The position numbers and the translations under genes are program-made. Positions 1-8,575 of a stretch of DNA of 8,575 nt are shown here, one piece after another. The notes under the pieces were generated by a model. It had not been told where the DNA came from. It saw nothing but the letters and a program-made list of their open reading frames with translations, and made no database searches. The DNA lies in the NCBI GenBank assembly GCA_035387745.1, contig DAOOON010000026.1:1-8575 (forward strand). Reading direction: 5' to 3'. The stretch comes from an archaeon. Its GTDB lineage: Archaea > Iainarchaeota > Iainarchaeia > Iainarchaeales > CSSED10-239. Position 1 is the stretch's first letter. Every line of letters starts with the position of its first letter.

Positions 1-32
1 GCATAACCGGTCTGCCATCAAGGCGCTTATTC

Positions 33-80
33 TTTATATAATTAAGAACAAATATATTTTTAAAGGAAACAATTATTAAA
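33..80 (+). promoter_or_regulatory. Candidate promoter region for mre11: consensus-like TTTATATA (33-40) and ATTATTAAA (72-80)
   Basis: ATTATTAAA is centred about 27 nt upstream of the ATG at 103, which fits a leaderless transcript. TTTATATA at 33-40 is a better consensus match but would give a leader of about 40 nt. It is nearly symmetric and could also serve a divergent gene to the left. AT-richness makes both calls weak. Confidence 0.25.
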
Positions 81-102
81 AAGTTCTGTTATATTATTAT
101 TT

Positions 103-1281
103 ATGAGAATTGGTATAATTAGCGATTGGCACCTGGGTGTTGATTTTGATAATGAACTTGGAAAGGACTCTTTTACTAATCTTTTTTTAGCATTTAAGCA
201 GCTTGAAACACAAGATATTGATCTTCTTTTGGTTCCTGGAGACCTCTTTGATGTCTCAAAACCAGAACCAGAGGTGCTTTTTGAAGCTATTAATCTTTTA
301 AATGAAATTAATATTAAAAACAAATATACTGAAATTAAAGCAAAAATACCAATACTTGCAATTATTGGAAATCACGAATATCGCTCAAAGGACTACATTA
401 CAACTGTTGAGCTTTTAGAGTCTCTTGGGTTTTTAAAACTTTTAAAAGCAGACTGCTTGAAATTTGAAAAAGAAAAAATAGCAATCTTTGGAATGACTGC
501 TCTTCCTGAAAAAATGGCTCTTAGCTATCTTAAAGAGAAGTTTAATCCACAGCCTTTGAAAGGATATTACAATATCTTAATGATACATCAATCAATTGTT
601 GAATATCTGCCATTTGAAGACGAGATGGTTGCTACAATTTCTCTTTCTGATCTACCTTCTGGATTTGATGTAATTGTTAATGGCCACCTTCACTGGTCAA
701 GCATTATTGATCTACCACAAGGCCCTAAGTTTCTTTTACCTGGTTCAACTGTTACAACACAGATTAAACAAAAAGAAACAGAAAAGCCAAAAGGCTATTT
801 TATTATTGATACTGACAAAAAAGAAATTGATTTTTGTCAAATAAAAGACATTAGAAAAGTATATTATATTGATTTAAAGTTTTCTAAAAAGACTGTTTCT
901 GATATTATTTCTATGATAAAAGCAGAACTTGAAAAACTTGAGAAAACACCAAACAGGAAAGCAATTGTTAGAATCAGATTAAAGGGAGAACTAGAAGATG
1001 GAGAATCTCTAAAGAACCTTAATATTGAATCTTTAAAAAAAGACTACTCTGAATTCTTTTATATCTCTTTAAAAAACGAAATTTCAGAAAAAAGACTAAA
1101 AGAAAGTATTGAACAACTAAAAAGATTGCAAAGCGAAAACAAGAATGTTTCAGAACTTGCAAAATCCATATTTTCTGAGCAGATTGAGCAAACAAAAATC
1201 TCCAAAGGCTTTGATTATAGAAGAATCTACGAGCTTTTAGAAAATGGCGACGTAGATAAAGCAAAAGGCGCTCTTAACTAG
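103..1281 (+). CDS. mre11: DNA double-strand-break repair nuclease Mre11 (calcineurin-like metallophosphoesterase, archaeal type; SbcD homologue)
   Basis: 392-aa ORF with ATG at 103 and TAG at 1279-1281. The phosphoesterase motifs occur in canonical Mre11 order: D8-x-H10 (ISDWHLG), G46-D47-LFD, G89-N90-H91-E, H162 (LMIHQS) and G194-H195-L-H197. A capping-domain-like block (KGYFIIDTDKKEIDF) and a K/E-rich helical C-terminus (possible Rad50-binding helices) follow. From memory, blocks such as LLESLGF, ILMIHQ, LSDLPSGF..GHLH and LLPGS align with archaeal Mre11 (Pyrococcus type). Motif I lies within the first 10 residues, which supports this start codon. Confidence 0.88.
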   Translation: MRIGIISDWHLGVDFDNELGKDSFTNLFLAFKQLETQDIDLLLVPGDLFDVSKPEPEVLFEAINLLNEINIKNKYTEIKAKIPILAIIGNHEYRSKDYITTVELLESLGFLKLLKADCLKFEKEKIAIFGMTALPEKMALSYLKEKFNPQPLKGYYNILMIHQSIVEYLPFEDEMVATISLSDLPSGFDVIVNGHLHWSSIIDLPQGPKFLLPGSTVTTQIKQKETEKPKGYFIIDTDKKEIDFCQIKDIRKVYYIDLKFSKKTVSDIISMIKAELEKLEKTPNRKAIVRIRLKGELEDGESLKNLNIESLKKDYSEFFYISLKNEISEKRLKESIEQLKRLQSENKNVSELAKSIFSEQIEQTKISKGFDYRRIYELLENGDVDKAKGALN

Positions 1282-1286
1282 TCTTC

Positions 1287-1335
1287 TTTATATTTTATAA
1301 ATATATCTTAGCATATTTCTTTTAACTATATAAAG
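1287..1335 (+). promoter_or_regulatory. AT-rich intergenic region with several TATA-like boxes upstream of the giant ORF (exact promoter not resolvable)
   Basis: The candidate boxes are TTTATATT (1287-1294), TTATAAATAT (1296-1305) and CTATATAAA (1326-1334). There is no GGAGG-like ribosome-binding site before the ATG at 1346. The T-rich run just after the mre11 stop (1283-1297) could also act as an archaeal oligo-T terminator. Confidence 0.25.
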
Positions 1336-1345
1336 AGAAATAATT

Positions 1346-1408
1346 ATGAATTTAAAATATATAACTTTATTCTTATTAATAATATTTATAACACCTTTTG
1401 CTTTTGCG
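1346..1408 (+). other. Signal peptide of the giant protein (aa 1-21, predicted cleavage AFA|EL)
   Basis: MNLKYITLFLLIIFITPFAFA has a basic n-region (K4), an uninterrupted hydrophobic core and a small-x-small A-F-A site, followed by E22. Confidence 0.8.
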
Positions 1409-4400
1409 GAATTACAACCCGCATTCTTAGATCAAAACACGCACTATTTTGGAGAAAAGATTAATTTCGGATTGATTGGAGTTATCCCTGATGATTTCAA
1501 TCACGCAAGAATTATTGTGCAATTGCCAACAGGTCACAGTTATCAAGAAGCAGACATAGATATAGATAATTTAAGTGATTATTATCTTGTTTTTCCATTA
1601 GATTTTATATATAATCAATTACAAATAAAATATATTTTTTATAATTCTAACAATACGGCGCCCCTTAATACAGAATACACTTTACAATTAGAAAGATTGC
1701 CTCTAATTGAAAATATAAACTATTGTATAAACGCAGATTGTAATAAAAATAACTTTGAAGTAATAGATGCAAATGAAATTTATCTTAAGACGCAGACTGA
1801 AATTATTGATGAAAATTTAAATTTTGATATATTAGTGATTTTAGATGGTTATATTATAGAAGATGGGAGAAATATACAATTACCTTATCTTTTAGATACT
1901 ACTCCCGGAGAATATGAAATTAAAGTAACTCCTAATTATAATAATCAAGAATTGGAAACTAAATCTTTATTTTTAAATTTGGCTATCACACAACCAGAAA
2001 CAAATAACTTAGAAGATTATTTAAATGATATTAGAGAGCAAAATGAAGCAGAAGAAAGAGAACAAGAAATAAATACCGCTATAGAAAATATTAACGACTC
2101 TCAAACAACCGAAACTCAAGAAAAAACAGAACCTAAAAATAATCTTTGGTTAATTGGATTGGGGATTTTAGTAGTATTGATAATTTTGATTTCAATTTTA
2201 TTATTTAGTAGACCTAAAGAAAAATTTGTTGAAAAACCAAGCAGAAGAGAAAGCCGAAAAGAAAGAGGGTTTTTATTTTTGATAATCTTTGTGTTGTTAT
2301 TTTCTTCTATTTATGGTCTGTCTTTAGAAGAAAAGATTAAAGAATATCAAAATTTAGAAATTACTTTTGATACTCTGCAAAAATCCTATCCTTATCCTAA
2401 GGACATATCTATACCAATAAGTAATACTCAACCACAAAACGTTTTTTATTACCCTATTTCTGCAACTGGACTTTCAGACGCTGAAAAAATAACGCCGATA
2501 GCCGAAAACAAACTATCAAATCTAATTGTGTCTTTAGAAACAGTTTACTTATCTATAGATTTGTCTGCAGAAATAGAAACTGCAAAAACCACTGGTAAGA
2601 CCTTGGGATTTGAAAGTGGTTGTGAACAAGTATTAGAATGGTTCCAGAAAAATCCAATAACTGCAGAACCAAACACTATAATTGCCAGAACCAAAGAAAA
2701 TTTGCTAAACAACATAACAATAACTGAAAATAAAACAGGATATACCGATAACGACAAAACACAAATTAGAGACAAAATAAAAAAATTAAAGACAGATAAA
2801 AAATATAAAAACTCTAAAAATCCATTTGTCGAGTATTGTATTTCAGACTATTTAGAAAATAAAGAGTCAAACATTGGTGGAAAATACATCACAAAAAAGA
2901 AAATATTATTAAAAATGGAATATACAGAGAAAAACCTTGAGGCCATAAATAATTATGACTTAACTTTTGACAATATAATATTTAACGATTCAAAAGGAAA
3001 AGATGTACTTGAGACGACCTTCCTTGGAAGCGATTTAAATCACATATATGTTTGGGTGGATTATACTGCAGATATTTTGCGTGAACAAAACCTTAGCCTA
3101 AAAGGAATTGCAGCAAATAGAATATTACAAGAAGAAATCGCCGATAATGGCGAAATCATTAAGCACTATATGATAACTAATCTTGATGAAGGAGAATCGG
3201 TAGACGTTACCTATGCTGCTCAATTGATAAATCTGGAAATATTAGATTCGGATTATGGCTCTTATTATCAATTTGAGGGTGTTGGTCAAGATACTTCTGC
3301 AACTCCAGAAAAGAAAGGAAATGTCTTTGCTATTAGAGACAAGGATTTGTTTTCGGTAAAAAACAAAATATTAAGCAATGTTGAAATCTCTGGAAAAATA
3401 TCCTTAGAAAACGGAAATTATAAATTTGAATTAAGTCCCGAATCTATAAAATTACTTGCAGAAGTAAATATAAATCCAACAAAGTATATTGTTTTAGACA
3501 AAAAACAGTTAATTGATGTTGGAACAGATACTCAAAAACTTACTATAGGAATAGACTATAATTATGGAATTATTTGTAGTGACTTCTCCGGAATCACAAT
3601 TTTATTAGAAGAAGATAAAACACTTTATCTGCCAACAAATATTAATAATCCTCATTTAGAGGCACTAACTAAATTATTTATAAAAACCAGTTCTCAAAAA
3701 AATATAGAATTGACAAGATTACAGTTACCTTTGCTTTTTATTTTTGCTTTTAAAAACAATGCAAATACAATCCCTGACGAAGATGTTTTATTTTTAAAAA
3801 CTTATGATGATGTTGCAAACATAATTAACAGAGGTAATTACACCAAGTTGGAAAAGAACATAATATTTAACAATCTTATTTCTTTAACTGAAGATTTCAG
3901 TTTTCAAAAAACCGCAAATTCTAAAGACGGACTATATAGATTTAAATATAAAACCAGGTTTGTTCTTAATTATGGACTTGTAAACTATATCGATCATCCA
4001 GAAAATATAAATAATTTAAATTTAGAAACTGTAGGAATAACTATCCCTCAATTATATGACAATAAATATCTTGAAAGAAAGGGGTTTGTGGATAAATCAT
4101 TAACAACACTCTTGGTGCTTGGCTATCTTGGGGATAATTATAGATCCTTTAGTAAAGTAATTAGATCAAGCTATAATTCTCATGAAGAATACGAAATAGA
4201 TTTAAAAAATCAAATACAAACGGTGTTTAATGAACAAAAAGCAACAACAGATAATTGGGGATATTATAAAGAATTATTGATTTATCCATTTTACAGAACT
4301 GGAATTGAACAAAAAATCTGCTCATATGATAAAGAAAACTTTCCAAAATATTCTGTAAAAAACTACTGTTATCAGGCATATAATTTTAATCCTGAATCTA

Positions 4401-7400
4401 ATACTTGGGGAATAGCATATGACCCGCATAACCTAGATTCTGGATTTTTAATGCAAGACTATTCTTTCCAAAATAATTTTGTTTCATCATATAGAACAAT
4501 ATTGTTGCTTGAAGATATTGAAAACTTTAAAAATAACAAACTTACATTTAATCAAAATCAATTAAAAACATATAATAAATTAAATATTTTCTTAAGTTTA
4601 ATTGAACTTGAAGCTATAAGAAATACTTCAACAACCGAAAATAATAGAAACTTTGGAAATGCTTTAATTTTATCTTATAAACTAAGAGAGTTGTGGGATA
4701 GTAGTAGTAACGAACTTAAAAAATATGATTCGGGCACTATTAGAAACGCAATTATAAATACAAACGAGGCATTAGCATATCAAGCAACCGTTAAGTTAAG
4801 AAATGTAGTTTCTACTGATAAATCTTTAAGATTAGATATATATAAAGGTCTTATCCAAACAGATTTTGAAAGATATGCTGAATCTATAAATCCTTCTGCT
4901 GGGTGGTTTGACTTAAGCGATTCTGCGAGATTTTTAATTACTGGCAGTTGGATTGAAACCTTTATTTTTACTGGTAGCCGAAAAGAAATTGAAAGTTTAG
5001 ATCAAAAAGAAAGAGACAAATATAATAAAATACTACACGGATCCTGTTGTATAGCTCAAAGACTAGGAGAATTAGAAAGTGATTCAAGTTATAAAAATTG
5101 GACAATCAAAGACATAAAAGATAACTTTAGTCCTTATTCTAAAGCTAAAACAAATACAAAAACAGATGTTATTGGGTGGGTAACTGATGGAACAAGTTGT
5201 ACTGGTACTTTAAGAGCAAACCCCGGGGATTGTGCTACTGATATATCTTATTTATATAATTCCAAAGAATTTGGAAATGATATTTCTTTTATATTAAATG
5301 ACAAAAAAGACAAAAAATCTATTACTCAATTTTTAAGTGCTGGATATTATACTAATCACACATTAGATATGGATTCTTCTATTCAAGTTAATTCCACAAA
5401 AAGAGAATTAGAAGAAACAAAAGTTAAATTTAAACCAGATGCAATAACCTCTGCATTAAGATTTATTGATTCCGGGATAAACCCTGCAACAATTATTATT
5501 ACCGTTGCAACTGCTGGAGCAGGTTATGGACTTATGACGGGAACGGGCAGCGTCTTCACAAGAATTGCAAGTGGATTTACAACAAAGCTGACTTTGGGAA
5601 AATTATCTAGTGCTTTAGGGACAAGATTATTGTATGAATTTGGAGAAAATATAGTTTTAGATGCGGCTTATGGTGCAATTGTTATTCCAAGTCCTAAACT
5701 TGCAGGAGAACATCCATTCCTGACATATGTGGTACTTGGAGTAATAGCAGGAAACTTCCAAAAAGCATTTATATCAAACGTAGATAATGCCGCCTCGGCA
5801 ATTACAAAAGATCTTATTGCAACATCTGGTTTAAAACAAGCAGATAACATAAAAATACAAACGGCAATAAAAACTGCGTTAAATACAGATTATTCAGACA
5901 CCACAGAACAATTACTAAAAATAAAAAGAGGAGAAGCAGTAACTGATTCCTTTTTTAGAAGGTTACCAAAAGTTGTAGCAGGCACTGCTGATGACGAGCT
6001 TGTAACTGCTATTAGAAAAAATTTATTATCTCAAAAGATATCGGTTAGTGATGATGTAATTAGAAAAAGTTTAACTCAAAATAATTTATATCTTGGAACA
6101 AGGGCTTCTGCAGTATCTAAATTTATATCTCGCAAAAATCTTATAGAGTTAAATAATATCGCTGCAGCCAATTTAGACAACACAAGTAGTAAATTCATTA
6201 AATTAGCAACAACAAGAACTGTTCCTGAAAGATATGGTGCAAAATTTACAAGTATTGTTGATGAATTTGAAGATTTAAAGAAGTTTAATGAAATCGACCC
6301 GGAACATTTTGCTAAACCTACAAAAATAGTTTATGATGATTTCGGAAACCCTCTTGGCTATGAAATGGAAAAAATATATGGCACAACCCTTGCAGACTAT
6401 ATTGAAGATGGAGGAGTATTAGATGATTCTTTCTATAAAAGAATTGAAGATTCAGTAAGTGAATTACATAAACAAGGCTACGCACACGGAGATATCAATC
6501 CAAACAATATAATACTTAGAGAAACATATGACGGATTAGATTTTACTATTATTGATCCTGTTGGTTTTAGAAAATTAAATCAAATTACAGATATTCCAGG
6601 ATTAACTGAGCAAGCAGCAATTGACTTAGATATAGAACAGTTAAATAAATTAAGAAATTTAACAATTCTAGAAGCAGAAATGATGAGAACAAACAAAATC
6701 TATGTTCCTAATGTTTGGGAATTACAAAGAATACAACAAACCGGAGAATTGGTGCCAATAAGAAGAGAAGGCGGTAACATTGTATTAGGCGAAGTTTTAG
6801 AAATATCTTCAGACAATACAAAAGTGAAAGTTAGATTTTCGGATTATCTAAATAATGTAACTGACGAACGTTTTTATGATATTGATACTGAAACATTTAT
6901 ACCAATAAGACAAAATGACATAGTTTATGTAAATGGTGTGGGCTCAGGAAAAGTAATAACAGTTGAACCAAATAAAACAGTAACATTAAGAAGAACTGAC
7001 GGGTCCATTATCTATACTGATGTTGATGCAATAATTAGTTCTAGGTCTTTAAATCAAGGATTAAAATTAAATGGAGATATATCTCAAATTACTCCACAAA
7101 CAACAGAAGCATTTTCGGCTACAAAAAATAGATTACCAGAAAGATTTATTTCTAGAAATACCGATTCTTGGTCTGGAAGAGAAGTTATTTTAGTTGATAA
7201 AATAAATGACCCCGTGTTAAAAGAATATCTTGCAAATGTAAGAATATTAAGCTCACAAAATCCAGACATTTTAAATAAAATCAAGGAAGCCTATAATTTA
7301 GTAAATAGAACAATGCCAGTTTATAGTTTAGGAAAAACAAATATCTTAGATGATATAATAGATAATGTAGATGTCGGAGGAGACGTAATTCCATTAGGCC

Positions 7401-8356
7401 ATTTTATAAATTCGAAGATTGGGGTTTGTAGACACAAGGCGCTATTATTAAAACTTACCCTTGATGAAATGGGAATAGAATCTTATCTTGTCAGAGGATC
7501 ACAATATACAGATGAGGGTAAAAATTTGGGCAGGCATGTTTGGGTAGAAATGGACCTTAAAACAAACAAAGGAAATAAAATTTATTTAGATCCAACACAA
7601 AATAAATATGAATATTTTTATGATGGTCAGCAAGTTAATGGATTAGTTAGAGATTCAGAATTGACATTATTCAGAATCAGAGATACTGTTCCACAGAATA
7701 ACTTTCGAAATTTAGCCGATGGAGCAGACATATACAAACGAACTGCAAGATTACAAAATTATTTAACTGAAGAATTACACAATTATAACCTAAATCCAAC
7801 AGCAATAAATGATTTTACATTTAAATATAATATAACTCAACAAATTACAAATCCACAATTTTTATCACAAATAGGATCTAATTTAAATGATCTACAAGAT
7901 TTAATGAAATTACAAAATTTAAAAATTAAAGAAATTTATCAAAATGATGGACTTTTACTTACATTAAATCACAAATTATCTTTGTCGTCACTTCCAACAA
8001 ATGTGCGTGAAGAAATAGTTTCTGAATTGGGCAGAAAAAATGTGTCAGTCATAGTTGTTGATGATTGGACGATTCGGAATTTAGATGATCAAGATAATTT
8101 TGCTACACTTAACTTAAATGATCCTAGAAATCCAATTATAAAAATTGAAAGATCAGCATATAATGACCCTAATAAATTTTTAAGAGAAATGAGATACGAA
8201 TATGGTGCATTATTGCTTTCTAAACAATATGGTAGTAAAGGAGACATTCCTTTATTCTTTAAACCATCTGATGCCGGGAAAATCGAACCTGTCTGGGCAA
8301 CACATTATTTAGATCATTATATGGAGAAAGGATATAATAGATTATTTCCAAATTAA
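1346..8356 (+). CDS. Giant (2,336 aa) multi-pass membrane/surface protein with a C-terminal kinase-like plus transglutaminase-like enzymatic module; overall function unknown
   Basis: A 7,011-nt open frame in AT-rich DNA cannot arise by chance, because stop codons are AT-rich. The N-terminus is a classical signal peptide. Recognisable catalytic motifs in the C-terminal third are in frame (see the sub-features). All five antisense ORFs inside it are short and low-complexity. Confidence 0.93.
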   Translation: MNLKYITLFLLIIFITPFAFAELQPAFLDQNTHYFGEKINFGLIGVIPDDFNHARIIVQLPTGHSYQEADIDIDNLSDYYLVFPLDFIYNQLQIKYIFYNSNNTAPLNTEYTLQLERLPLIENINYCINADCNKNNFEVIDANEIYLKTQTEIIDENLNFDILVILDGYIIEDGRNIQLPYLLDTTPGEYEIKVTPNYNNQELETKSLFLNLAITQPETNNLEDYLNDIREQNEAEEREQEINTAIENINDSQTTETQEKTEPKNNLWLIGLGILVVLIILISILLFSRPKEKFVEKPSRRESRKERGFLFLIIFVLLFSSIYGLSLEEKIKEYQNLEITFDTLQKSYPYPKDISIPISNTQPQNVFYYPISATGLSDAEKITPIAENKLSNLIVSLETVYLSIDLSAEIETAKTTGKTLGFESGCEQVLEWFQKNPITAEPNTIIARTKENLLNNITITENKTGYTDNDKTQIRDKIKKLKTDKKYKNSKNPFVEYCISDYLENKESNIGGKYITKKKILLKMEYTEKNLEAINNYDLTFDNIIFNDSKGKDVLETTFLGSDLNHIYVWVDYTADILREQNLSLKGIAANRILQEEIADNGEIIKHYMITNLDEGESVDVTYAAQLINLEILDSDYGSYYQFEGVGQDTSATPEKKGNVFAIRDKDLFSVKNKILSNVEISGKISLENGNYKFELSPESIKLLAEVNINPTKYIVLDKKQLIDVGTDTQKLTIGIDYNYGIICSDFSGITILLEEDKTLYLPTNINNPHLEALTKLFIKTSSQKNIELTRLQLPLLFIFAFKNNANTIPDEDVLFLKTYDDVANIINRGNYTKLEKNIIFNNLISLTEDFSFQKTANSKDGLYRFKYKTRFVLNYGLVNYIDHPENINNLNLETVGITIPQLYDNKYLERKGFVDKSLTTLLVLGYLGDNYRSFSKVIRSSYNSHEEYEIDLKNQIQTVFNEQKATTDNWGYYKELLIYPFYRTGIEQKICSYDKENFPKYSVKNYCYQAYNFNPESNTWGIAYDPHNLDSGFLMQDYSFQNNFVSSYRTILLLEDIENFKNNKLTFNQNQLKTYNKLNIFLSLIELEAIRNTSTTENNRNFGNALILSYKLRELWDSSSNELKKYDSGTIRNAIINTNEALAYQATVKLRNVVSTDKSLRLDIYKGLIQTDFERYAESINPSAGWFDLSDSARFLITGSWIETFIFTGSRKEIESLDQKERDKYNKILHGSCCIAQRLGELESDSSYKNWTIKDIKDNFSPYSKAKTNTKTDVIGWVTDGTSCTGTLRANPGDCATDISYLYNSKEFGNDISFILNDKKDKKSITQFLSAGYYTNHTLDMDSSIQVNSTKRELEETKVKFKPDAITSALRFIDSGINPATIIITVATAGAGYGLMTGTGSVFTRIASGFTTKLTLGKLSSALGTRLLYEFGENIVLDAAYGAIVIPSPKLAGEHPFLTYVVLGVIAGNFQKAFISNVDNAASAITKDLIATSGLKQADNIKIQTAIKTALNTDYSDTTEQLLKIKRGEAVTDSFFRRLPKVVAGTADDELVTAIRKNLLSQKISVSDDVIRKSLTQNNLYLGTRASAVSKFISRKNLIELNNIAAANLDNTSSKFIKLATTRTVPERYGAKFTSIVDEFEDLKKFNEIDPEHFAKPTKIVYDDFGNPLGYEMEKIYGTTLADYIEDGGVLDDSFYKRIEDSVSELHKQGYAHGDINPNNIILRETYDGLDFTIIDPVGFRKLNQITDIPGLTEQAAIDLDIEQLNKLRNLTILEAEMMRTNKIYVPNVWELQRIQQTGELVPIRREGGNIVLGEVLEISSDNTKVKVRFSDYLNNVTDERFYDIDTETFIPIRQNDIVYVNGVGSGKVITVEPNKTVTLRRTDGSIIYTDVDAIISSRSLNQGLKLNGDISQITPQTTEAFSATKNRLPERFISRNTDSWSGREVILVDKINDPVLKEYLANVRILSSQNPDILNKIKEAYNLVNRTMPVYSLGKTNILDDIIDNVDVGGDVIPLGHFINSKIGVCRHKALLLKLTLDEMGIESYLVRGSQYTDEGKNLGRHVWVEMDLKTNKGNKIYLDPTQNKYEYFYDGQQVNGLVRDSELTLFRIRDTVPQNNFRNLADGADIYKRTARLQNYLTEELHNYNLNPTAINDFTFKYNITQQITNPQFLSQIGSNLNDLQDLMKLQNLKIKEIYQNDGLLLTLNHKLSLSSLPTNVREEIVSELGRKNVSVIVVDDWTIRNLDDQDNFATLNLNDPRNPIIKIERSAYNDPNKFLREMRYEYGALLLSKQYGSKGDIPLFFKPSDAGKIEPVWATHYLDHYMEKGYNRLFPN
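1409..1990 (+). other. N-terminal ectodomain, probably one or two beta-sandwich (Ig/CARDB/PEGA-like) modules (aa 22-215)
   Basis: Alternating hydrophobic/polar beta-strand patterns are present (ARIIVQLPTG, YYLVFPL, IKYIFYN, EYTLQLE, FDILVILDG). There is also a TPGEYEIKVTP strand-turn motif typical of adhesin-type beta-sandwiches. No profile search was possible. Confidence 0.45.
1991..2143 (+). other. Acidic, E/Q/T/N-rich low-complexity stalk (aa 216-266)
   Basis: QPETNNLEDYLNDIREQNEAEEREQEINTAIENINDSQTTETQEKTEPKNN is strongly acidic and has no hydrophobic core. It lies immediately before a membrane helix, like the stalk of an anchored surface protein. Confidence 0.6.
2144..2326 (+). other. 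Transmembrane helical hairpin: TM1 (aa 267-287), basic loop (aa 288-308), TM2 (aa 309-327)
   Basis: The sequence is LWLIGLGILVVLIILISILLF, then SRPKEKFVEKPSRRESRKERG (9 K/R in 21 aa, consistent with the positive-inside rule), then FLFLIIFVLLFSSIYGLSL. The expected topology is out-in-out after signal-peptide cleavage. Confidence 0.75.
2327..5482 (+). other. Large orphan region (aa 328-1379), predicted extracytoplasmic; no family recognised
   Basis: It lies between TM2 and the next hydrophobic cluster. It is N/K/I/T-rich with mixed beta-like and helical stretches, and it holds 9 of the protein's 12 cysteines, several close together (HGSCCIAQ; SCTGTLRANPGDC; KICSYD...NYCYQ). I recognise no catalytic or repeat motif. 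Confidence 0.5.
5483..5758 (+). other. Second hydrophobic cluster: one clear TM helix (aa 1380-1399), a weak hydrophobic segment (aa 1436-1450) and a short TM-like helix (aa 1457-1471)
   Basis: The three segments are PATIIITVATAGAGYGLMTG, IVLDAAYGAIVIPSP (contains Asp, marginal) and PFLTYVVLGVIAGNF (15 aa). Because the number of true membrane spans is ambiguous, the side on which the C-terminal tail sits is also ambiguous. Confidence 0.6.
6215..6625 (+). other. Minimal protein-kinase-like (Bud32/RIO/Kdo-APH-like) domain (aa ~1624-1760)
   Basis: A hinge-like YEMEKIYGTTLADYI is followed by LHKQGYA-H1714-G-D1716-INPN-N1721-IIL, which is the kinase catalytic loop HxDxxxxN. The metal-binding-loop equivalent FTII-D1737-PVGF lies 21 residues after the catalytic Asp. 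I see no GxGxxG loop and no clear VAIK-type lysine; only RYGAKF (K1633) is a candidate. Confidence 0.65.
6749..7039 (+). other. Two tandem small beta-barrel (KOW/SH3/Tudor-like) repeats (aa ~1802-1833 and ~1851-1898)
   Basis: There is an internal protein-level repeat. LVPIRREGGNIVLGEVLEISSDNTKVKVRF parallels FIPIRQNDIVYVNGVGSGKVITVEPNKTVTLRR. Both units start with PIR and continue with the pattern [GD]xIVxxxxxGxVxx[IV]...K[VT]x[VL]R. Confidence 0.45.
7313..7615 (+). other. Transglutaminase-like / papain-fold cysteine protease core (aa ~1990-2090)
   Basis: The Cys-His-Asp triad sits in canonical contexts and spacing: IGV-C2028-RHKALLLKLTLDEMGIESYLVRG (nt 7427-7429), GR-H2064-VWVEM (nt 7535-7537) and IYL-D2082-PT (nt 7589-7591). 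The Cys-to-His distance is 36 aa and the His-to-Asp distance is 18 aa. This matches the transglutaminase-like superfamily signature G-x-C-x-x-[FH]-A...H-x-W-x-E...D-[PA]-T. Confidence 0.75.
7616..8353 (+). other. C-terminal orphan region (aa ~2091-2336), no recognisable domain
   Basis: The region has soluble-looking mixed alpha/beta composition and contains no cysteine and no hydrophobic span. I can name no motif with confidence. Confidence 0.4.
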
Positions 8357-8360
8357 GTAA

Positions 8361-8387
8361 ATCAAAACCTATATATATGGGTTTGAT
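8361..8387. promoter_or_regulatory. Inverted repeat ATCAAAACC-(TATATATAT)-GGGTTTGAT, a TATA box embedded in a palindrome; candidate promoter and operator of the ArsR-like gene and/or a 3' hairpin of the giant gene
   Basis: Nt 8361-8369 and 8379-8387 are reverse complements at 8 of 9 positions. The AT-alternating centre (8370-8378) is centred about 27 nt upstream of the ATG at 8401, the classic archaeal TATA-to-start distance for a leaderless mRNA. The element begins 5 nt after the stop codon of the giant ORF. Confidence 0.45.
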
Positions 8388-8400
8388 CATATAATTATAT

Positions 8401-8575
8401 ATGAAATGCTTATCATATAACTTCTTTTCGGTTATTGGAAATGAACTTCGGTGGAAGATTATTAAAAAACTTTATAAGTCAGAATTGACTGTTTCTGAAT
8501 TGTGTGTTGCTCTTGAAGAGGAACAGTCTAAAGTTAGCCATGCTTTAAAGATACTACTTGATTGTAATATTGTTT
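8401..8575 (+). CDS. ArsR/SmtB-family winged helix-turn-helix transcriptional regulator (5' fragment, continues beyond the window)
   Basis: Translating frame 1 from the ATG at 8401 gives MKCLSYNFFSVIGNELRWKIIKKLYKSELTVSELCVALEEEQSKVSHALKILLDCNIV with no stop. This matches the ArsR pattern (F..L.n..R..Il..L...eltV.EL...L..sQs.vShHLk.L...g.V). The ORF track omits it, presumably because it is truncated. Confidence 0.72.
   Translation, partial: MKCLSYNFFSVIGNELRWKIIKKLYKSELTVSELCVALEEEQSKVSHALKILLDCNIV

Follow-up and report, generated by a model that had tools for sequence, protein, structure and literature searches.

How DPANN archaea with reduced genomes recognise and exploit their partners is largely unknown, and the few candidates at hand, such as the SPEARE proteins of Nanohaloarchaeota, are giant surface proteins whose mechanism is unclear. 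Here we analyse an 8,575-nt stretch of DNA from an uncultured archaeon (contig DAOOON010000026.1, positions 1 to 8,575; referred to as the window) that is largely taken up by one gene encoding a membrane protein of 2,336 residues. A predicted signal peptide, head, stalk, transmembrane (TM) hairpin and very large ectodomain are followed in this protein by a weakly hydrophobic cluster, a kinase-like domain, two small barrels, a cysteine peptidase domain and a tail. The protein belongs to the DPANN theme of giant surface proteins and stands outside every described family. Its gene is the one that differs radically between otherwise near-identical genomes, and evolution itself has in this sense singled it out as a compact candidate.

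Described systems closest to the giant protein

SPEARE proteins have been proposed to mediate host interaction (PMC6642349). They are giant DPANN proteins that are mostly extracytoplasmic, carry adhesion-type domains, are anchored towards the C-terminus and end in a cytoplasmic enzyme, and the window protein is of similar build as far as its predicted topology goes. No shared domains were detected, however. The window protein lacks laminin-G, serine protease and type III restriction-enzyme domains in Pfam and NCBIfam searches and has an N-terminal TM hairpin in addition, whereas SPEARE proteins lack the pair of kinase-like and transglutaminase-like domains. The two also differ in how they vary, since the cytoplasmic part is the most conserved portion of SPEARE proteins and the corresponding part is the most variable portion of the window protein.

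The peptidase domain is of the same PF14381 subtype as that of the EDR1/CTR1 and ARMC3 proteins, which in plants is fused to a protein kinase (PMC10318531). The order is reversed in the window protein, where the kinase-like domain precedes the peptidase, and neither PF07714 nor PF00069 matched above threshold. Plant EDR1/CTR1 proteins are moreover cytosolic and devoid of a signal peptide, an ectodomain and SH3-fold barrels, whereas the window protein is membrane-anchored. A combination of kinase and EDR1-type peptidase, familiar from the CTR1/EDR1 signalling proteins of plants, exists independently in an archaeon.

The kinase-like domain itself resembles the small kinases of the NleH/OspG, Bud32/RIO and Kdo/WaaP/WaaY groups in its small kinase fold, its HxD...N catalytic loop, its metal-binding aspartate and its reduced C-lobe, and one distant homologue of the giant protein (P0010) scores 22.8 bits with WaaY, above the cut-off of 20.3. 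In contrast to those kinases, the window protein falls far short of the Bud32, Kdo and PknB cut-offs and its kinase-like domain is embedded in a giant membrane protein.

Polymorphic toxins, contact-dependent inhibition (CDI) systems and MARTX toxins are likewise large exported proteins, with enzyme modules that are recombined between strains beside a conserved delivery region (general knowledge; PMC3482391). Comparison of the loci L005 and L007 shows here, too, a sharp boundary between a conserved N-terminal region and a variable C-terminus. The variants of the giant protein are nevertheless homologous and keep one order (kinase-like domain, barrels, peptidase) instead of showing unrelated folds, and the ectodomain itself is hypervariable between strains too. 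No RHS, FHA or RTX repeats and no pre-toxin domains were found in the window protein with Pfam, and the flanks of the giant gene contain no co-varying immunity gene and no orphan cassette-like ORFs (open reading frames). A classical polymorphic toxin was rejected, given the lack of an immunity gene and the homology of the variants.

An earlier reading made from the letters of the window and their translations (the sequence-only reading) had proposed that this combination of domains belongs to no characterised family. The searches bear this out, as Pfam, NCBIfam, the PDB, PADLOC and PHROGs see nothing in the protein beyond kinase-like and transglutaminase-like pieces, with PADLOC and PHROGs returning generic kinase-loop similarity only. 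No published description of the protein was found in the literature.

The gene and its allelic mosaic

The window has a GC content of about 28% and contains a single giant ORF on the plus strand (1346..8356), which runs from ATG to TAA and covers 7,011 of the 8,575 nt, or 82%, as the sequence-only reading had noted. Since stop codons make up about 8% of random triplets at this composition, by our own arithmetic, an open frame of 2,336 codons is excluded as a chance event. The identical protein occurs on four contigs, which derive from three or more independent assemblies; three of these contigs were displayed (JGI 3300010355, ENA ERZ27257431 and JGI 3300025855), and the protein is also present in NCBI. 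This identity answers, for the window allele, the objection that a frameshift or a chimeric assembly had produced the frame: such an event is effectively excluded, and an assembly artefact was ruled out for this allele. Full-length orthologues of 2,233-2,443 residues exist, and the ratios of non-synonymous to synonymous substitution rates (dN/dS, 0.12-0.36) indicate that coding constraint acts on the gene. The ORF is a real and uninterrupted gene of the expressed type, with a fixed order of modules.

A word-indexed search of 5.8 billion proteins returned nine full-length relatives that are 33-100% identical to the window protein. One of them is labelled Ca. ainarchaeum which, together with the archaeal housekeeping genes that surround the locus, supports the DPANN origin. 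Three further family proteins came from other searches, giving a family of about 12, and the GTDB species set contains two carrier genomes. The distant relative P0010 (30% identity) was the sole relative found by a single-sequence search with the C-terminal part. It shows the order hydrophobic cluster, kinase-like domain, two barrels and peptidase and has no tail; lying 59 nt from the contig start, it may be truncated. A homologue search with a C-terminal profile returned nothing, not even the query family, a result that we ascribe to the limit of the word index and not to biology, and the same profile found no relatives among viral contigs and JGI metagenome contigs.

Comparison of the alleles reveals a mosaic. 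Protein pairs occur in which the first ~1,600 residues are 89-100% identical and the remainder is 17-50% identical. Typing of the modules at 80% identity distinguishes six or seven backbone types and eight or nine types of barrel, peptidase and tail, and C-terminal types are common to unrelated backbones. The proteins P0002 and P0009, both from short Logan contigs that could be chimeric, have C-termini that are 92-99% identical on backbones of ~30% identity, and the peptidase of P0001 is 83% identical to that of P0008. Because of clustering at 90% identity, identical alleles are concealed.

The same pattern is visible at the DNA level, where the main comparisons draw on contigs 19-35 kb long. 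The flanks of L005 and L007 are mostly 95-100% identical and their giant genes are 99-100% identical over most of the first 4.2 kb, after which identity falls to ~89% and then to 41-65% in the last 2 kb, to return to 97-100% just past the stop codon. Between L001, which carries the window allele, and L005, the flanks are 95-100% identical beyond ~1.2 kb upstream and 0.2 kb downstream, and the gene is 50-73% identical almost throughout, except that a single window of 300 nt in the kinase-like segment reaches 79%. Between L001 and L006, finally, the flanks are 70-80% identical, the N-terminal part of the gene ~50% and the segment encoding kinase, barrels and peptidase 74-87%, so that the C-terminal modules are more alike than the flanks. 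At its 5' end the exchanged tract starts within or close to the conserved kinase-like or barrel segment, and at its 3' end it stops at the conserved downstream flank.

Wherever dS is unsaturated, the Nei-Gojobori dN/dS lies in the range given above, which indicates that the modules are functional and argues against decay or relaxed constraint. The pair P0003/P0005 illustrates the contrast within a single gene, with a dS of 0.03 in the N-terminal part and of more than 1.3 in the barrels and peptidase. The mosaic consists of old divergent alleles, each under purifying selection, that have been replaced and reshuffled by recombination within genomes that are otherwise nearly identical. Given this evolutionary pattern, we argue that the ectodomain and the C-terminal module both face something variable and non-self. 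The hypervariable mosaic, which was invisible to the sequence-only reading, is the strongest evidence for a role in interaction. Alleles of the giant protein could also serve as strain or host-range markers in metagenomes.

Modules and membrane topology

All features described below lie on the plus strand of the window. The sequence-only reading had described a signal peptide, a beta-sandwich-like head on an acidic stalk, a TM hairpin and about 1,050 residues of orphan sequence, and each of these parts was recovered by hydropathy, AlphaFold2 (AF2) models, Foldseek and profile searches. The AF2 models were built on family alignments and are of moderate quality, with mean predicted local distance difference test (pLDDT) values of 55 and 58.

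The signal peptide (residues 1-21, 1346..1408; MNLKYITLFLLIIFITPFAFA, followed by ELQP) is a hydrophobic N-terminus that closes with AFA, and we infer cleavage between this motif and the following E; the motif ELQPAFLD after the predicted signal-peptidase site is kept in all orthologues. The head (residues 22-215, 1409..1990) is modelled as two beta-sandwich domains of immunoglobulin (Ig)-like or macroglobulin (MG)-like type, with strands across residues 38-214, pLDDT of 60-80 in the first sandwich domain and low values in the second, and holds a conserved cysteine pair (C127-C132). Foldseek relates it, at E of about 1e-3, to the MG domains of complement C3, alpha-2-macroglobulin, the HPI S-layer and Ig-like adhesins. 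Against viral structures the N-terminal model gave generic Ig-like matches only, and there was no fusogen-like or spike-like structure among the matches listed for it in the PDB. The acidic helical stalk (residues 216-265, 1991..2140), read from the translation and modelled with a helix at 223-246, is poorly conserved among orthologues, and head and stalk together (residues 22-265) have a net charge of -32.

The hairpin that follows (2141..2326) is composed of TM1 (residues ~266-288), a basic loop and TM2 (~308-327). Its cores are the two most hydrophobic 19-residue windows of the protein, with a Kyte-Doolittle mean of 3.3 and a Hessa sum of -6.1 for TM1 (269-287) and of 2.5 and -2.8 for TM2 (309-327). 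The short loop contains the invariant residues R300, R301, R304 and R307 and fits the cytoplasmic side. TM2 and its surroundings (residues ~301-331, window 2246-2340) resemble a signal peptide in having a basic n-region, a hydrophobic core and a c-region, with a small residue at -1 and a small or aliphatic residue at -3 in nearly all orthologues. It is possible, on these features, that TM2 acts as an internal signal peptide and that the precursor is split into an anchored head protein and a large chain.

The orphan ectodomain (residues 328-1375, 2327..5470) comprises an alpha/beta region, a beta-sandwich region (~515-760) and helical bundles, and the AF2 model of residues 350-920 shows these elements, with one helical bundle, at pLDDT of 70-90. 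A sandwich of the transthyretin/CarboxypepD_reg-like type at ~603-687 is indicated by a weak repeat match to a CarboxypepD_reg protein. This was the one finding outside the family itself when the ectodomain profile was run exhaustively with HMMER against 1.84 billion representatives, and the ectodomain matched no PDB sequence. Six of its nine cysteines are invariant.

A second TM cluster had also been proposed in the sequence-only reading. A Gly/Ala-rich hydrophobic cluster does lie at residues 1376-1474 (5471..5767); it is weakly hydrophobic, however, and its number of spans is ambiguous by both hydropathy and Hessa sums. Over the whole protein, hydropathy shows five hydrophobic stretches, namely the signal peptide, TM1, TM2 and two much weaker ones within this cluster, and the two cluster windows at +3.4 and +5.8 are the only ones with a Hessa sum below 7.5 beyond the signal peptide and TM1/TM2. 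Segment a (1381-1404) belongs to a 25-residue uncharged stretch of Gly, Ala, Ile, Val and Thr with a Hessa sum of +3.4 and a Kyte-Doolittle mean of 1.5-1.75 in orthologues and just below 1.5 in the window allele. Segments b (~1434-1449) and c (~1456-1474) are weaker, with invariant acidic residues and Hessa sums of +5.8 to +10. The cluster contains the invariant polar motifs D-x-GINP and YE-x-GEN as well as D1439, and its mean pairwise identity of 57% is the highest among 11 modules compared, which marks it as mechanistically central. The GC content of the window also peaks here (0.376 at 5501-6000, against about 0.28 overall).

On which side of the membrane the C-terminal part lies depends on this cluster, as one or three spans would put the enzymes inside the cell and two or none outside. 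The choice between the receptor and the delivered effector array offered in the sequence-only reading hinges on the same count. The head and stalk (residues 22-265) and the ectodomain (328-1375) can be placed outside the cell with confidence from sequence features and models, because of the signal peptide, the strong TM segments, the basic loop, the extracellular types of fold and the presence of 11 cysteines (eight of them invariant) up to residue 1296. For the enzyme module we lean towards the inside of the producer's own cell, a placement favoured by its presumed dependence on ATP, by the depletion of cysteines (the catalytic C2028 is the sole one in the last 1,040 residues), by the net positive loop between segments a and b and by the intracellular types of its barrels. 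The density of N-glycosylation sequons did not separate the regions.

A helical linker (residues 1475-1600, 5768..6145), modelled at low confidence, leads to the kinase-like domain (residues 1601-1760, 6146..6625). This minimal domain has a truncated C-lobe, a catalytic loop of the HxD(x4)N form (H1714-G-D1716, N1721) and a metal-binding aspartate equivalent to that of DFG (D1737, in IIDPVG). K1619 and E1640/E1642 are assigned as the beta3 lysine and the alphaC glutamate by alignment only, AF2 confidence being low at this point. The motifs are kept in eight of the ten full-length members, and the HGD, N and IIDPVG motifs recur in P0010. In P0007 and P0011, HGN replaces HGD and a glycine stands in place of D1737 (IGPS and IGSP for IIDP), at the equivalent of window positions 6485-6558; both retain the peptidase triad. 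P0007 also carries an insertion of ~190 residues that straddles the junction of the linker and the kinase-like region and resembles a duplication of the helical linker.

Structural comparison with Foldseek relates the domain, at a probability of 1.0, to ULK2, the effector kinase NleH2 and CDPK over 141-197 aligned columns (TMt 0.40-0.44 for ULK2 and NleH2). The family profile matched 261 distinct PDB sequences at E <= 1, the best being ULK2 at 1e-5, and nearly all of the 60 listed of these 261 are protein kinases. The NCBIfam and Pfam matches to Bud32, PknB and Kdo are all sub-threshold (TIGR03724 for Bud32, 28.5 bits against a cut-off of 125; PF06293 for Kdo, 16.8 against 21.3). The kinase-like nature proposed in the sequence-only reading is therefore upheld and its Bud32/RIO label is too specific at 28.5 of 125 bits; from sequence and models, the domain is better called minimal atypical kinase-like. 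The motifs kept in eight of ten members, together with a dN/dS of 0.12-0.15 in most pairs and 0.36 in the most divergent one, imply an enzyme that uses ATP. The domain is probably active in most alleles, yet not indispensable.

Two small SH3-fold beta-barrels of Tudor/KOW-like type follow (residues ~1761-1900, 6626..7045). Foldseek matches them to the Spt5 KOW domain, the tandem Tudor domain of Sgf29 and the N-terminal domain of FMRP, in agreement with the tandem small beta-barrel pair of the sequence-only reading, and Pfam gives sub-threshold matches to intracellular SH3-like barrels, with KIF2A-like_1st recurrent. Their copy number appears from the alignments to vary between about one (P0004) and about four (P0002, P0009); together with the P0007 insertion, this variation falls within the equivalent of window positions 5768-7045.

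The peptidase domain (residues ~1901-2095, 7046..7630) is a transglutaminase-like, papain-fold cysteine peptidase with the triad C2028, H2064 and D2082. PF14381 (EDR1_CTR1_ARMC3_pept) matches residues 1939-2061 at 43.1 bits against a gathering score of 27, PF01841 rises above its cut-off in P0011 and P0010, and Foldseek recovers transglutaminases and related putative proteases (TG3, factor XIII, 3isr and 3kd4). Sequence comparison with the PDB gave for this domain E of about 0.1 to a protein-glutamine gamma-glutamyltransferase and no more. The triad is invariant in ten of ten full-length members and in P0010, although realignment of the domain alone leaves the triad aspartate of P0004 ambiguous. 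The Cys-His-Asp core was read correctly from the sequence, and the catalytic residues are conserved for the peptidase in all ten members, with the kinase aspartates lost in two of them (P0007 and P0011). Given that the triad is invariant where the kinase motif is lost in two of ten, the peptidase would be the universal catalytic element of the family.

The orphan tail (residues 2096-2336 and the stop codon, 7631..8356) consists of a helical part followed by an alpha/beta part and is modelled at pLDDT of about 70-88. The sequence-only reading had noted 250 orphan residues here; the tail of ~240 residues has no relatives in the PDB or Pfam. It is the most variable module (mean pairwise identity 25-36%), being unrelated in P0007 and missing from P0010.

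Proposed role and genomic surroundings

We tentatively favour the reading that the protein is a strain-specific surface interaction protein of an Iainarchaeota-like DPANN archaeon, in which external contact is coupled to a cytoplasmic kinase-like and peptidase module. The head and ectodomain would bind a variable non-self partner outside the cell, such as a virus or the exterior of a host or neighbouring cell. In the hydrophobic cluster, segment a would act as a stop-transfer span, with b and c forming two more spans or a re-entrant hairpin, and the enzyme module would then lie on the cytoplasmic face of the producer. Contact could in this way be converted into phosphorylation by the ATP-dependent kinase-like domain and into cleavage of peptide or isopeptide bonds by the cysteine peptidase at the contact site, while the barrels and the tail would set a substrate specificity that depends on the allele. 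If TM2 serves as an internal signal peptide, the precursor could be cleaved to yield a small head protein that stays anchored and a large chain bearing the enzymes.

Several observations weigh against this reading. The C-terminal part is the most variable of the protein, whereas conservation between strains would be expected of a signalling module confined to the cytoplasm, and is found in the cytoplasmic part of SPEARE proteins (PMC6642349). Segments b and c are poor TM candidates and segment a is a marginal one, so two spans or none are possible. No Gly-rich nucleotide loop (GxGxxG-like) was found upstream of K1619, in a region of low AF2 confidence. Some atypical kinases also do without this loop, and its lack lowers confidence in activity and not in the fold. 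Judged by their sequences, P0007 and P0011 are pseudokinase alleles in which both catalytic aspartates are lost. No conserved operon or partner gene was found around the giant-gene loci examined, and the short Logan contigs of P0002 and P0009 could be assembly chimeras.

The conservation of the cluster beside a variable C-terminus can also be explained by delivery into another cell, as with MARTX, large clostridial toxins or CdiA, an explanation that we regard as unlikely. The N-terminal hairpin would then anchor the protein in the producer, everything beyond TM2 would be exported, and the cluster would serve as a translocation hairpin into the partner membrane, bringing the enzymes to a cytoplasm that contains ATP; the peptidase may process the delivered chain itself. 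The marginal hydrophobicity of the cluster fits, since a Sec stop-transfer could be escaped, and its leading pairwise identity is what would be expected of a delivery core. NleH2, the best structural match among minimal kinases, is a secreted effector, papain-fold cysteine enzymes are common among effectors, and the exchange of C-terminal modules between backbones by recombination recalls MARTX effector repertoires and the C-terminal toxin domains of CdiA, which vary similarly. The lack of an immunity gene would fit a target of a different species. All alleles nevertheless share their domain order and folds instead of carrying unrelated effectors, no known trafficking, repeat, pre-toxin or autoprocessing (C80) domains were detected, no release mechanism is evident, cell-to-cell delivery is undocumented in the lineage, and the cysteine depletion of the C-terminal part would fit any cytoplasm. 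A bolder version, to which we give slightly less credence still, would be a new type of archaeal contact-dependent interaction or effector locus, in which the conserved Gly-rich insertion segment places the recombining kinase, SH3-barrel and cysteine-peptidase unit into or against the partner. Its old allelic classes would be kept by frequency-dependent selection, making it an analogue of MARTX and CDI systems that is unrelated to them and has no immunity gene. Should the C-terminal module indeed enter another cell, it would represent a new class of archaeal effector system.

If the cluster spans the membrane twice or not at all, the barrels and the peptidase would instead bind and cleave a wall outside the cell, as SH3b and NlpC/P60 hydrolases or the pseudomurein endoisopeptidases PeiW/PeiP do, and the protein would be an extracellular lytic or adhesive tip that breaches or remodels the host envelope. 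SH3-fold barrels in variable copy number ahead of a papain-fold peptidase are typical of wall hydrolases, and LapG is a periplasmic enzyme. PF14381 domains have been reported to be highly similar to the MEROPS peptidase families C71 (PeiW/PeiP, which cleave pseudomurein) and C93 (LapG) (PMC10318531). Both families act outside the cytoplasm, and hypervariability with lateral exchange is typical of host-range determinants. We consider this improbable, given that the kinase-like domain in the same segment keeps its catalytic residues, is under purifying selection and would find no ATP outside, that the barrels match intracellular SH3, Tudor and KOW types and not SH3b families, and that the last 1,040 residues hold the catalytic cysteine alone, unlike the demonstrably external part. 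The variable partner could, lastly, be a virus, with the protein acting in membrane-embedded antiviral surveillance: the ectodomain would be the site of virus contact or a decoy, and the cytoplasmic kinase and peptidase would trigger a defence or abortive response, with viral inhibitors as the module's opponents in an arms race. Hypervariable alleles and shuffled modules within conserved flanks do resemble defence loci, and the sole PADLOC similarities are to the kinase-type defence proteins PD-T4-6 and MkoA (E about 1e-6). These matches cover the generic kinase catalytic loop only, however, the gene lies among housekeeping genes instead of a defence island, PHROGs and the scan of viral contigs yielded no viral relatives, and the architecture matches no known defence system. 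We hold this the least probable of the explanations considered.

The neighbourhood of the gene consists of archaeal housekeeping genes (MCM, RPA, topoisomerase VI, eIFs, PFOR and IscS/NifU), syntenic among close relatives and different at the P0006 locus. Directly upstream lies a plus-strand gene for an Mre11-like phosphoesterase (103..1281; 2729-3907 in L001) with NCBIfam Mre11 and Pfam Metallophos matches, which is syntenic in four of the five backbones examined. No Rad50 gene stands beside it in any locus examined. A functional tie to the giant gene was rejected, because conserved synteny is all that connects the two and other genes flank the P0006 locus; the Mre11-like gene is syntenic context and no part of the giant-protein system. 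Further upstream are genes for a 135-residue unknown protein and a PEP-utilising enzyme. In the 3' half of the Mre11-like gene, identity between L001 and L005 falls from 96% to 80% on approaching the giant gene, like the edge of a recombination tract.

Downstream, an ArsR/SmtB-type helix-turn-helix gene begins 45 nt past the giant ORF, preceded by a TATATATATG stretch, and is partial at the end of the window (8401..8575, plus strand); it was identified from its translation, and HTH_5 matches it in L001, L003 and L006. The downstream flank of 8 kb, including this gene, is ~98% identical between loci whose giant genes have different C-termini. The ArsR-type gene does not co-vary with the C-terminus of the giant gene and is therefore no immunity-like partner.

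An Rfam scan gave no match, and a tandem-repeat scan found three low-scoring, AT-rich arrays inside the giant ORF and no relevant element. These are short imperfect repeats (2763-2803, 7741-7786 and 7880-7923) with periods of 18-24 and about two copies each, and probably reflect AT-rich coding bias. Farther downstream, a NifU/IscU-like gene of 532-534 codons holds an intein, with Intein_splicing and LAGLIDADG matches, in three loci (L001 12495-14099, L005 13994-15592 and L007 13990-15588), and the same gene has no intein in L006 (13648-14079, 143 residues), a presence/absence polymorphism.

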